From contig NC_090379.1 of the NCBI RefSeq assembly GCF_036365525.1, positions 114,564,263 to 114,628,262 on the forward strand: 64,000 nt of DNA, in the 5' to 3' direction. A model generated the notes under the pieces. The model saw nothing but the letters and a program-made list of their open reading frames with translations, searched no databases and was not told the DNA's origin. Positions 42,897 to 58,890 of the stretch are shown in pieces. The stretch comes from Heterodontus francisci (Eukaryota). The first letter of the stretch is position 1. Each line of letters opens with the position of its first letter. Position numbers and translations under genes: made by a program.

Positions 42897-43028
42897 CTGA
42901 TGAAGAGTCATTGATCTGAAACATTAACTCTGCTTCTCTCTCCACAGATGCTGCCAAACCTGCTGAATATTTCCAGCATTTCGTTTTTATTTCAGATTTC
43001 CAGCATCTGCAGTATTTTGCTTTTATTT
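42897..43028 (+). mobile_element. Penelope-type mini-element with hammerhead-like core
   Basis: CTGATGA..GAAAC core; 16-bp TSD TAATGTCACAGATCTG at 42884-42899 and 43029-43044. Confidence 0.85.
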
Positions 43029-43813
43029 TAATGTCACAGATCTGCGTGTATACTTGGGACTTAGATGATGTCTCAGGTCAGCGTTTAGCCCTGGGTCTTA
43101 GATAATGTCACATATCTGTGTGTATCCCTGGGACCCGAGTGATGTCACATATCTGTGTGTATCCCTGGGACCCGAGTGATGTCACATGTCTGTGTGTATC
43201 CCTGGGACCCGAGTGATGTCACATATCTATGTGTATCCTTGGGACTCGAGTGATGTCACATATCTGTGTGTATCCCTGGGACCCGAGTGATGTCACATAT
43301 CTGTGTGTATCCCTGGGACCCGAGTGATGTCACATAAATGTGTGTATCCCTGGGACCCGAGTGATGTCACATGTCTGTGTGTATCCCTGGGACCCGAGTG
43401 ATGTCACATATCTGTGTGTATCCCTGGGACCCGAGCGATGTCGCATATCTGTGTGTATCCCTGGGACCCGAATGATGTCACATATCTGTGTGTGTATCCC
43501 TGGGACCCGAGTGATGTCACATGTCTGTGTGTATCCCTGGGACCCGAGCGATGTCGCATATCTGTGTGTATCCCTGGGACCCGAGTGATGTCACATATCT
43601 GTGTGTATCCCTGGGACCCGAGTGATGTCACATGTCTGTGTGTATCCCTGGGACCCGAGTGATGTCACATATCTGTGTGTATCCCTGGGACCCGAGTGAT
43701 GTCACATATCTGTGTGTATCCCTGGGACCCGAATGATGTCACATATCTGTGTGTGTATCCCTGGGACCCGAGTGATGTCACATGTCTGTGTGTATCCCTG
43801 GGACCCGAGTGAT
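43029..43813 (+). repeat. 37-bp minisatellite GATGTCACATATCTGTGTGTATCCCTGGGACCCGAGT, left part
   Basis: About 19 homogeneous units, plus degenerate units extending back to ~42860. Confidence 0.95.
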
Positions 43814-56600: not shown

Positions 56601-58890
56601 ACAGCCCTCTGGGGTAGAAAATTCCAAAGATTCACAACCCTCTGAGTAAAGGAATTTCTCCTCATCTCCGTCCTAAGTGGCTTCCCCCTTATTTTGAAAT
56701 TGTGTCCCCTGGTTCTAGACTCCCCAACCAGGGGAAACATCTTAGCTGCATCTATCCCTTTAAGTATTTTGTAGATTTCAATGAGATCATCTCTCATTCT
56801 TAAAACTCGAGAGAATACAGGCCCAGCTTTCCTTAGTCTCTCTTCATAGCACAGTCCCACCATCCCGGGAACAAGTTTGGTTGCATCCCTCTATGGCAAT
56901 AATATCCTTCCTAAGGTAAGGGGACCAAAACTGCACACAATACTCCAGGTGCATCTAACCAAGGTTCTATATAATTGAAGCCAGACTTCACTACTCCTGC
57001 ACTCAAATCCTCTTGTGATATAGGCTAACATACAATTAGCCTTCTTATTTGCTTGCTGCACCTGCATGTTAGCTTTCAGTGACTTATTGACAAGGACACC
57101 CAGGTCCCCTTGTACATCTACACTTTCTAATCTCTTACCATTTAAGAAATACTCTGCACACCTGTTCCTCCTACCAGAGTGGATAACCTCACATTTTTCC
57201 ACATTATATTCCATCTGCCACATTCTTGCCCACTCACCAAGTCTGTCCATTTGGTCCCCACATCCAAATCATTGATATATATTGTGAACAACTGGGGCCC
57301 AAGTACTGATCCTTGTGGTACCCCACTAGTCACAGTCTGCCAGTGTAAGAATGACCCATTTATTCCTACTCTCTGCTTTCTGCCTGTTAACCAATCCTTA
57401 ATCCATGCCAGTATATTACCTCCTATCCTATGTGCTTTAATGTTGCGAACCAACTTCCTGTGGTGAACCTTATCAAAAGCCTTCTGAAAATCCAAGTATA
57501 CCACGACCACCGACTTCCCTTTATCAATTCGGTTAGTAACATCCTCAAAAAGTTCCAACAGGTTCGGCAGGTACAAATTGTCTGCCGCATTTCCTACATT
57601 ACAACAGTGACTACGCTTCATAAGTACTTCAGAACATGAGTTCTGATGAAAGGTCACTGACCTGAAACATTAACTCTGCTTCTCTGTCCACAGATGCTGC
57701 CAGACCTGCTGAGTATTTCCAGCATTTCTTGTTTTTACTTCATAAGTACTTCATTGACTGTAAAGTGCTATGGTCATGAAAGGCGCTATATAAATGCTGT
57801 TCTTTAAATGGTAATAATCTAATTGTAACTAAACCCAACAGCATGAGAGAGCTAGATTAACATCAGTATAGAGACAATTAACAGGGGAAGGGGTTACTGA
57901 CAGTGAGGGAGCTGGATTAACATCAGTCGAGATACAGTCAGTAACACAGGGCACTGGGGGTAGAGGGGTTACTGAGTGACAGTGTGGGGGAACTGGATTA
58001 ACATCAGTAGAGATACAGTCAGTAACACAGGGCATTGGGGGGAGAGGGGTTACTGAGTGACAGTGTGATGGAGCTGGATTAACAACAGTAGAGGTACAGT
58101 CAGTAACAATCCAAGCTTGGCATGAGACTGAGCTCTTTCTCTGCTACTTTTAACTCTCTGCTACTCATATTAACATTTCCTCAGGTATGTCTCTGAGCTC
58201 CTGCCAATGATGATTAAGTTTATTGAGAAACTGGACTCAAATCTGCAGCTGTTAAAAACCATCCCTCAGGTGACAGAGAAAGTAAGGATGATGGTAAGTA
58301 AACAATGGAAATTTTCAACTGTCTTTATAATTCTTTTTCTCTTTTTGTGAAGAATGGGACATTTTCCATTTCAGTTACCCAAAATATCACAGCATGAATC
58401 AGATATAGTCCATTCTATACTGTCCCATCAAACACTCAGACCCATGCAGCACCTACTCTTTGAGTCTTAGATGGGACAGTGTAGGGGGAGCTTTACTCTG
58501 TAACTAACACTTTTTTTTCTTGTTTTCTGCTTTACTCTGTATCTAACTCCGTGCTGTACCTGCTCTGGGAGTGTTTGATGGGGACAGTTTAGAGGAGATT
58601 TATTCTGTGGGAAACCCGTTTTGTACCTGTCCCAGAAATACTCAATACAAGGACTATGTGAGAAATAAAGAAGTGTTCTGTTCCCCAGCACTGATCTTTC
58701 TCCATTTTGTGATTAACAGAAAGATGCACTAAAAGTATAGGCATTTTAAGACTTTCTTTTGTATGTTTAGGAAAACCTTGTGGCCAGGATGGTGTCTGAG
58801 GTACTGGAACTGAAGGAAGTGATGGAGTTTATTGTGAAGTGGAGAGAGCAGCAGAAGACTGTTGGATTGGAGAGCCTGGGATGGAAATGA
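47522..58890 (+). CDS. HAUS2: HAUS augmin-like complex subunit 2, 6 coding exons, 208 aa
   Basis: join(47522-47611,49224-49328,51946-52015,52939-53071,58185-58293,58771-58890) = 627 nt. [41 protein letters not shown] and KWREQQ match HAUS2; head-to-head with LRRC57. Confidence 0.95.
47855..48512 (-). mobile_element. DeuSINE interrupted by a Penelope-type element (47938-48178)
   Basis: The SINE tail and core are separated by a 240-bp insert that extends ~105 nt beyond the hammerhead. Confidence 0.85.
49224..49328 (+). CDS. HAUS2: HAUS2 coding exon 2 ([11 protein letters not shown]...AELEQ)
   Basis: aaacag| ... CAG|gtatca, 105 nt, phase 0-0. Confidence 0.88.
49693..50160 (-). mobile_element. 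DeuSINE interrupted by a Penelope-type mini-element (49729-49864)
   Basis: 14-bp TSD CAATTAAGTATAGT at 49715-49728 and 49864-49877. Confidence 0.85.
50590..51670 (+). mobile_element. CR1 LINE RT and 3' fragment
   Basis: [35 protein letters not shown]. Confidence 0.9.
51946..52015 (+). CDS. HAUS2: HAUS2 coding exon 3 ([23 protein letters not shown])
   Basis: gtcag| ... G|gtaagt, 70 nt. Confidence 0.94.
52939..53071 (+). CDS. HAUS2: HAUS2 coding exon 4 ([20 protein letters not shown]...EANCHR)
   Basis: gctag| ... AG|gtgagc, 133 nt. Confidence 0.95.
53958..55735. mobile_element. Non-autonomous hAT-type DNA transposon
   Basis: TIRs CAGGGTTGTCCAAC / GTTAGACAACCCTG; 8-bp TSD ATCTACAA 53950-53957 / ATCCACAA 55736-55743. 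Confidence 0.88.
54250..55542 (+). repeat. C-rich, CpG-rich compound tandem repeat inside the hAT element
   Basis: (CT)n, then ~21-bp CCCCCGCTCGCTCCCTCTGT, then 17-bp CTCGCGCTCCCCTCGCC, then (CTCGCC)n. Confidence 0.95.
56428..57570 (-). mobile_element. CR1 LINE RT and 3' fragment
   Basis: [38 protein letters not shown] duplicated at 56423-56427 and 57571-57575. Confidence 0.9.
57632..57737 (+). mobile_element. Penelope-type mini-element with hammerhead fold
   Basis: GAGTT CTGATGA A AGGTC ACT GACCT GAAAC ATT AACTC at 57638-57676; 16-bp TSD CTTCATAAGTACTTCA 57616-57631 / 57738-57753. Confidence 0.88.
57845..58110 (+). repeat. ~82-bp tandem repeat (gagctggattaacatcagtagagatacagtcagtaacacagggc...)
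   Basis: About 3.5 imperfect units. Confidence 0.8.
58185..58293 (+). CDS. HAUS2: HAUS2 coding exon 5 ([20 protein letters not shown]...VRMM)
   Basis: cctcag| ... ATG|gtaagt, 109 nt. Confidence 0.94.
58410..58640. repeat. Dispersed ~67-bp repeat family, with one inverted partial unit
   Basis: actgtcccatcaaacact is inverted relative to gtgtttgatggggacagt; same family as 14733-14850. Confidence 0.7.
58771..58890 (+). CDS. HAUS2: HAUS2 last coding exon ([39 protein letters not shown])
   Basis: gtttag| acceptor; TGA at 58888-58890. Confidence 0.92.
   Translation, partial: ENLVARMVSEVLELKEVMEFIVKWREQQKTVGLESLGWK

Follow-up and report, generated by a model that had tools for sequence, protein, structure and literature searches.

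Short hammerhead-bearing repeats in the horn shark as likely truncated ends of a longer Penelope-like retrotransposon

A 64,000-nucleotide stretch of the genome of the horn shark Heterodontus francisci (NCBI RefSeq assembly GCF_036365525.1, contig NC_090379.1, positions 114,564,263 to 114,628,262 of the forward strand; the whole stretch is called the window here, and positions are counted from its first letter) contains nine insertions of a short repeat that carries a minimal hammerhead ribozyme motif. Our analysis indicates that these repeats are likely short, 5'-truncated insertions of the hammerhead-bearing end (a pseudo-long terminal repeat (pseudo-LTR) plus a tail) of a longer, likely endonuclease-bearing, Penelope-like retrotransposon of the shark. 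This reading follows from a pair of 3' ends spaced about 34 nt from each other, from head-to-head pairs and from 5' truncation of graded extent, which together form the published insertion signature of Penelope-like elements (PLEs). An earlier note on this DNA had proposed instead a discrete, non-autonomous, retrozyme-like family of ~135-bp units. The family is likely a real and very abundant shark set of truncated Penelope-like ends with a minimal hammerhead, and does not fit the published definition of a retrozyme.

Searching the 64-kb window with a profile of six of its copies located the repeat at nine insertions comprising 11 arms. Ten arms gave E-values from 6e-48 to 2e-09 and the eleventh (58961-59029) was weak (E 0.011), so all nine places named in the earlier note hold the repeat. 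Copies are ~75-240 bp long, at a density of one insertion per 7 kb. The uniform length of ~135 bp claimed for them is true of three, each of which starts at the outer edge of ribozyme helix I and carries the tail: c49 (49729-49864, minus strand; profile match 49729-49865), with a 14-bp target-site duplication (TSD); c45 (45689-45824, minus), where a TSD was looked for and none found; and c42b (42893-43027, plus), which has a damaged stem II, ACAT at stem III and a 16-bp TSD that overlaps the element start as a microhomology. It fails for c57 (57632-57737, plus; profile match 57639-57737), which starts at the edge, has ACAT and a 16-bp TSD, and ends ~34 nt earlier, without the tail. It also fails for the longest copy, c47 (47939-48177, minus; profile match 47936-48072), which is 239 bp long, is itself 5'-truncated and comprises 105 nt upstream of the ribozyme, the hammerhead and the tail; the 4-nt repeat ACTT flanks it at both ends (48175-48178 and 47935-47938). 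Two further exceptions, c15 (15750-15965) and c19 (19495-19624), are head-to-head inverted pairs. The remaining insertions are c42a (42153-42238, minus), a decayed copy that starts at the edge, lacks the tail and has a 9-bp TSD, and c58 (58956-59029, minus), a weakly matching copy that is old or internally deleted.

The three long TSDs were confirmed at 16 bp for c42b (42884-42899/43029-43044), 16 bp for c57 (57616-57631/57738-57753) and 14 bp for c49 (49715-49728/49864-49877), a length of 14 being reached in one of 1000 random intervals; the other six of the nine insertions have shorter flanking repeats, if any. Four copies had been said to begin near the 5' edge of the ribozyme, and the number is in fact larger, since six of the 11 arms (c49, c45, c42b, c57, c42a and the inverted arm of c15) start within ~3 nt of the helix I edge. 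At the 5' junction of c57 (57629-57646) the opening bases of the element recur as an inverted repeat of 7 nt, which overlaps the end of the TSD and resembles a miniature second-strand priming event.

Inverted pairs account for two of the nine insertions, with the tail on one arm only: in c15 the plus arm (15853-15965) has it and the minus arm (15750-15847) does not, a 7-bp repeat flanking the pair, and in c19 the minus arm (19495-19546) has it and the plus arm (19549-19624) does not. The two c15 arms have ~75 nt of the element in common, which implies that the same stretch was copied twice, from two RNA molecules or from two repeats of one transcript. Sequencing reads also show opposite-strand joints, and none of the nine window insertions consists of tandem (head-to-tail) units.

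Genome-wide evidence came from four of 22 listed public sequencing runs, aligned to 47915-48195 at 80% likeness: X1 (83,763 contigs), X18 (64,477 capture reads), X19 (12,522 reads from restriction site-associated DNA) and X5 (9,219 contigs). X5 is an RNA run by guess only and was not taken as evidence of expression. In all four runs the 3' ends fall at two positions, 47938-47940 and 47971-47975. Loose ends in X18 number 10,254 and 4,422 reads at 47938 and 47939, and 2,071 and 1,642 reads at 47972 and 47975; in X1 they number 1,554, 2,589 and 587 contigs across 47938-47940, and 342 at 47972. The two ends delimit an optional tail of ~34-36 nt (47939-47974, minus strand), which is likewise present in some window arms and missing from others.

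Rather than a discrete element of 135 bp, the repeat is the end of something longer. At 48074, immediately upstream of the ribozyme, the X18 depth is still 13,825 (~35% of the 39,840 in the peak bin), and at 48156 it is 3,749. Past the end of c47 (48177), 2,620 X18 reads continue into one shared sequence (agreement 0.91), while 3,067 leave at 48141 into a second upstream form (agreement 0.76). On the downstream side, the 4,422 X18 reads leaving at 47939 have a consensus in common (agreement 0.58). These shared continuations beyond both ends, known from 30 letters only, are relevant to a partial tandem arrangement of pseudo-LTR, open reading frame (ORF) and pseudo-LTR; neither the upstream nor the downstream motif was found in the window. 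The short, edge-starting c49 and the long c47 differ at one position in 133 nt, as against 7-17 differences in the other 14 pairs, and their flanks are clearly diverged. The proposal of a discrete non-autonomous family is not borne out by these observations. Over 48075-48135, the depth in X5 is ~10 times below the expectation from X1, as if the second upstream form were absent there.

This architecture matches that published for endonuclease-bearing (EN+) PLEs in several respects. EN+ insertions are described as heavily 5'-truncated, with an adjacent inverted truncated copy, a 30-40 bp tail at one end, TSDs of 8-10 bp or longer and microhomology at junctions (Arkhipova et al. 2013, PMC3846280; Craig et al. 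2021, PMC8557442). The shark repeat has the inverted copies, tail, TSDs and microhomology, and its depth profile shows heavy, graded 5' truncation in combination with the TSDs; it differs in that its insertions shrink to 75-240 bp and no ORF is seen. Another parallel is found in PAc, the Poseidon element of Anolis carolinensis (Frangieh et al. 2024, PMC11167929), in which an optional tail of 30-40 nt lies between two internal start sites of reverse transcription and uncleaved RNA was shown to serve as template in vitro. PAc and the shark repeat are alike in having two 3' ends that define a tail, an uncleaved template and, in the shark presumably, priming on both strands, and stem II lies at a similar distance from the distal 3' end, ~122 nt in the shark repeat and 111-118 nt in PAc. 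The start region is AC-rich in PAc, with the ORF beginning at stem II, whereas in the shark it is U-rich without a conserved ATG, and a 5'-end hot spot at the ribozyme edge, present in the shark repeat, is not described for PAc in the available part of that paper. Since the minimal PAc template requires ~55 nt beyond the tail, the solo shark copies are likely to be dead on arrival. The shark element may be Neptune-like in its clade.

The hammerhead itself is of the minimal type I, as the earlier note had recognised, and the strings it quoted at 57638-57676 and 45824-45790 are exact. A strict pattern matched four window copies (c57, c49, c47 and c45) and none of 100 shuffles that approximately preserved dinucleotides, while an Rfam scan of the window returned no hammerhead family at E up to 5. 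In c47 the predicted motif occupies 48035-48072 (minus strand), with the 5' strand of helix I at 48072-48069, the core CCGATGA at 48068-48062, stem II at 48060-48048 and GAAACGTT at 48047-48040; the predicted cut falls between 48040 and 48039. The core elements (CUGANGA, GAAA, helices I and II and a UH cut triplet) are present, with the U4C change in c47 and c49 and damage in c42b and c42a. The two youngest-looking cores, and about half of the reads, have CCGA in place of CTGA, a variant that the earlier note had overlooked. An intact core is missing or partial in four arms (both arms of c19, the direct arm of c15, and c58), contrary to the claim that every copy keeps it. Stem III had been given as the palindrome ACGT, which is correct for three of the six aligned cores and incorrect for c57, the copy chosen to illustrate the motif, and for c42b and c42a, all of which have ACAT.

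Covariation in stem II, on which the earlier note had relied, was not recovered: none of nine pairs is changed on both sides relative to the commonest pair, and the score of the six window cores was equalled by 344 of 500 shuffles. The first pair is GU in three cores, GC in two and AU in one. Outside the window there is some support, in that the loose-end consensus of 336 contigs at 48047 (agreement 0.44) reads AGGTC...GACCT, and there does seem to be a subfamily whose first pair is A-U. As the variable positions (GACCC/GACCT, CCGA/CTGA and ACGT/ACAT) are all CpG positions, decay may explain much of the variation. When five cores were folded, c57 alone fared better than shuffles (z -2.5, the others -0.2 to -1.1), and folding of two copies, whose minimum-energy structure did not take the double-hammerhead shape, was uninformative. 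Pattern matches elsewhere (none in viral contigs, three in metagenomes and two in bacterial genomes) were put down to chance, since in all five the match covered only 22-35 nt around the pattern.

The motif resembles the hammerheads of metazoan PLE pseudo-LTRs (Cervera and De la Pena 2014, PMC4209133). Both have a type I core, a helix III reduced to nothing beyond a CG palindrome (kept in three of the six aligned shark cores), an extra base between positions 9 and 10.1 and, in young shark copies, the G10.1-C11.1 pair, and both occur as thousands of solitary motifs left by truncated elements. They differ in that about half of the shark copies read CCGA at the core. Neither a shark term nor a matching motif was found in two supplements to that paper that were searched.

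The 5'-end hot spot (48068-48074, minus strand) has the sequence TCAGTTC and coincides with a step in X18 depth, from 20,553 to 13,825 over 48067-48074. This is a loss of 33% within 7 nt, or 5.5% per nt, compared with 0.3-2.0% per nt in 11 of 12 comparison intervals. The one interval outside that range, 48138-48144, marks a boundary between subfamilies and has a loose end in common, whereas at 48070 the loose ends vary in sequence (173 contigs, agreement 0.33). These figures come from local alignment of a capture library and its best-supported rows, and about half of the peak depth is gone before the helix I edge, partly through edge effects and clipping. At the cut site a step was looked for and not seen, the interval 48032-48048 losing 1.3% per nt in X18, which argues that the templates were uncut. 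The earlier suggestion that the template was uncleaved therefore holds, the retained cores agreeing with it; the further suggestion that it was multimeric or circular lacks support, head-to-tail joints being rare among those listed and the ends not permuted.

Our leading candidate for the cause of the hot spot, at somewhat below an even chance, is run-off of reverse transcription at an RNA 5' end located at the helix I edge; splicing, short master copies and alignment effects rank below it in that order. The sequence TCAGTTC (48074-48068) fits the initiator consensus YYANWYY and equally a 3' splice site (CTAAT at 48084-48080, then CAG|TT). On the splicing explanation, which we regard as unlikely, the edge would serve as a 3' splice site, like that of Penelope in Drosophila virilis, and copies of spliced RNA would lose their likeness to the genomic form there. 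Its attractions are the CTAAT...CAG|TT of c47 placed right at helix I, the commonest listed contig end at 48070, the first base past the AG, and the ~10-fold depletion of X5 relative to X1 at 48075-48135, a comparison weakened by the guessed RNA nature of X5 and by the poor measure that contig depth provides. Moreover, the D. virilis intron has its 3' boundary at the 5' end of helix I (PMC4209133), and the majority of transcripts there undergo splicing (Schostak et al. 2008, PMC2377424). However, spliced templates should share a first exon, and neither the loose ends at 48070, with their low agreement, nor the TSD-bounded copies show one, which favours an RNA 5' end; the TSD abuts or overlaps the edge in c49 and c42b, and none of 15 listed joints is of the GT-AG type.

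We go further, tentatively, and propose that transcription of the element begins at the first base of the hammerhead, such that priming at the tail in the upstream repeat would give strong-stop-like cDNA of 100 or 135 nt that is integrated directly, in huge numbers. The D. virilis study (PMC2377424) offers a partial precedent: there too the transcript starts inside the upstream pseudo-LTR and a 3' splice site-like AG lies at helix I, but in the fly the start precedes a 75-nt intron by 46 nt and the ribozyme by ~120 nt, whereas under the run-off model the shark transcript would start at the ribozyme. If the proposal were true, the mini-copies would be explained without a non-autonomous master and the ribozyme would be placed at the very 5' end of the mRNA. 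Promoter-bearing stubs would also be scattered through the genome, leaning to one site in an older repeat that resembles a short interspersed element (SINE).

A discrete SINE-like mini-element, in which some 135-bp copies beginning at the transcription start carry an internal promoter, act as masters and are mobilised in trans by Penelope protein, seems slightly less probable still than splicing. It would account for the start edge shared by six of 11 arms, for the 17% of peak depth lost there and for the very high density of insertions; Penelope has an internal promoter (PMC2377424), and cis sequences in the pseudo-LTR can mobilise other sequence in trans (PMC3846280). Against it stand the near identity of short c49 to long c47, truncation that is graded on both sides of the edge, and the requirement of the anole protein for RNA extending ~55 nt past the tail (PMC11167929), a stretch missing from solo copies. 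The step could also be an alignment effect, if older subfamilies share the ribozyme and tail, differ upstream and so have their reads clipped at the edge. The subfamily distinguished by its stem II, seen as 336 loose ends at 48047, and the even sharper step at the 48141 subfamily boundary speak for this, but three window copies are bounded by TSDs at the edge and the loose ends there have no common sequence, and we consider it improbable. Stalling of the reverse transcriptase (RT) on the ribozyme fold was thought unlikely by reasoning, since the enzyme would reach the 3' side of each helix first.

Least probable of all, despite the type I hammerhead, the long TSDs, a few head-to-tail joints and the pseudo-LTR-related retrozymes reported for one chondrichthyan (Li et al. 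2026, bioRxiv 10.64898/2026.07.22.740005), is a strict non-LTR retrozyme, with tandem hammerhead units transcribed, cut as dimers, circularised and reverse-transcribed, given that no window insertion is tandem, that dimers are rare among the joints listed, that the ends are fixed at the tail sites where a circular template would give permuted ones, and that the cut site has no depth step. The joints in question run from 48068 or 48074 back to 47939, with three contigs each among the listed joints of X1 (83,763 contigs; 198 further joints fall outside the listing) and one in X5; their rarity leaves the circle reading unsupported. Metazoan non-LTR retrozymes (Cervera and De la Pena 2020, PMC7229834; Li et al. 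2026) do resemble the shark repeat in being non-coding and pseudo-LTR related, with a type I hammerhead and long TSDs. However, they are defined as tandem units that each contain a hammerhead and make circles, while the shark copies are solitary or head-to-head with the fixed tail ends of a PLE. The mean consensus length of the retrozymes of Li et al. is 363 bp.

For the preferred reading, of truncated ends of a longer PLE, the following course of insertion can be envisaged. The endonuclease of the element would make a nick in the target, preferring AC(T) at the junction, and reverse transcription would start inside the RNA at either of two sites ~34 nt apart, by analogy with PAc (PMC11167929), to yield copies with or without the tail. 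Copying then passes through the uncut hammerhead, as the retained cores and the lack of a depth step at the cut site show, and breaks off prematurely at numerous positions, above all where helix I begins. In the run-off variant, with transcription starting at TCAGTTC, priming at the tail of the upstream pseudo-LTR would give a ready-made cDNA of 135 or 100 nt and priming at the downstream repeat longer copies. Priming of both target strands would produce the head-to-head pairs with the tail on one arm. For cutting, the minimal hammerhead would need a dimer or the help of a protein, and many copies have lost the motif, probably through CpG decay. Lunse et al. in 2017 reportedly described dimer cleavage of minimal hammerheads.

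Several points weigh against this interpretation. No RT or GIY-YIG ORF tied to the repeat was found in the window frames or by protein searches, so that membership of Penelope rests on architecture; Penelope-type mobilisation, as suggested earlier, is otherwise supported. A Pfam scan covered 69 of the 97 stop-to-stop frames of at least 100 aa in the window, the other 28 lying nearly all in tandem arrays, and its four RT fragments read as long interspersed element (LINE) type, none being PLE-like; their motifs look like those of CR1/L2. The depth tables derive from local alignments and best-supported rows, with partial counts for X1. Gene conversion could explain the identity of c47 and c49, which are 1.8 kb apart, and the shared flanks could reflect a long non-coding tandem unit or a few loci enriched in a capture library. 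As for the proposed transcription start, it is deduced from one 7-nt motif whose identical bases suit a 3' splice site. An extra G before AGTT, possibly templated by a cap, is found in c57, in a single loose end of X19 and in one of the joints listed; the other listed joints and one X1 consensus have different letters, and the evidence for a cap-derived G is thin and mixed.

Searches with three repeat frames against longer proteins gave one horn shark gene model each for two frames and nothing for the third. A HMMER library search found five proteins, three of them exonised copies (two in the whale shark) and two unrelated repeats, none with an RT or GIY-YIG domain. Two H. francisci gene models contain exonised sequence of the same subfamily (93-94% identical in amino acids), and two whale shark models contain exonised copies related to it. 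The horn shark models, for an eosinophil peroxidase-like protein and for RNF14 isoform X2, begin with the repeat-derived peptides; these starts are probably annotation artefacts and possibly first exons supplied by the element.

Minimal hammerheads in Penelope ends have been known since 2014, and the identity of the tail as two RT start sites since 2024; the role of the ribozyme and the start point of the transposition RNA are open in print. The sharp concentration of 5' ends at the edge of helix I, absent from the cut site, offers a free genomic readout of the end of that RNA. A literature search, which extended neither to Repbase or Dfam nor to subscription papers, found no description of this hot spot or of a shark hammerhead-Penelope family, which is probably catalogued in such sources.

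With respect to target choice, three of the nine insertions, c47, c49 and c57, lie within ~10 nt of one position in the older SINE-like repeat, in the same orientation and with different junctions (47935-48178, 49715-49877 and 57616-57753). The same site is empty at five places (22930-22998, 38165-38233, 25415-25472, 50275-50327 and 10221-10283), so that three of eight recognised sites are filled. The host repeat may resemble the tail of SacSINE1/AmnSINE1. Genome-wide depth is ~300 in the c47-type flank and 21,700 just inside the element, which indicates that the SINE-like site is not the dominant target. A terminal T-run followed by ACT within 0-3 nt occurs at six of 11 3' ends (a post hoc observation, P about 0.001), and consensus loose ends at the tail-less end start with AC in X1, X18 and one of three X19 rows.

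Other features of the window were noted in passing. One minisatellite, with a unit of ~37 bp by self-match offsets, forms two arrays (43029-43813 and 46841-47381), the first of which begins exactly at the right TSD of c42b. The sole strong match of the Rfam scan, to MIR8643 at 15763-15916 (55.8 bits, well under the cut-off of 135), is just the c15 palindrome, and inverted pairs of this kind may be mis-called as microRNA hairpins. At 33995-34372 (minus strand) there is a leucine-rich-repeat exon (Pfam E 1e-12), part of the window lying in a host gene. A gap of 200 N (6915-7114) within 6658-7372 sits between the halves of a 256-nt duplication at 98%, a likely assembly overlap. A younger family of ~330 bp is represented at 59717-60053, 23707-24050, 41073-41519, 44354-44665 and 61710-62011; with its tRNA-like head (59717-59789) it is probably a tRNA-derived SINE.

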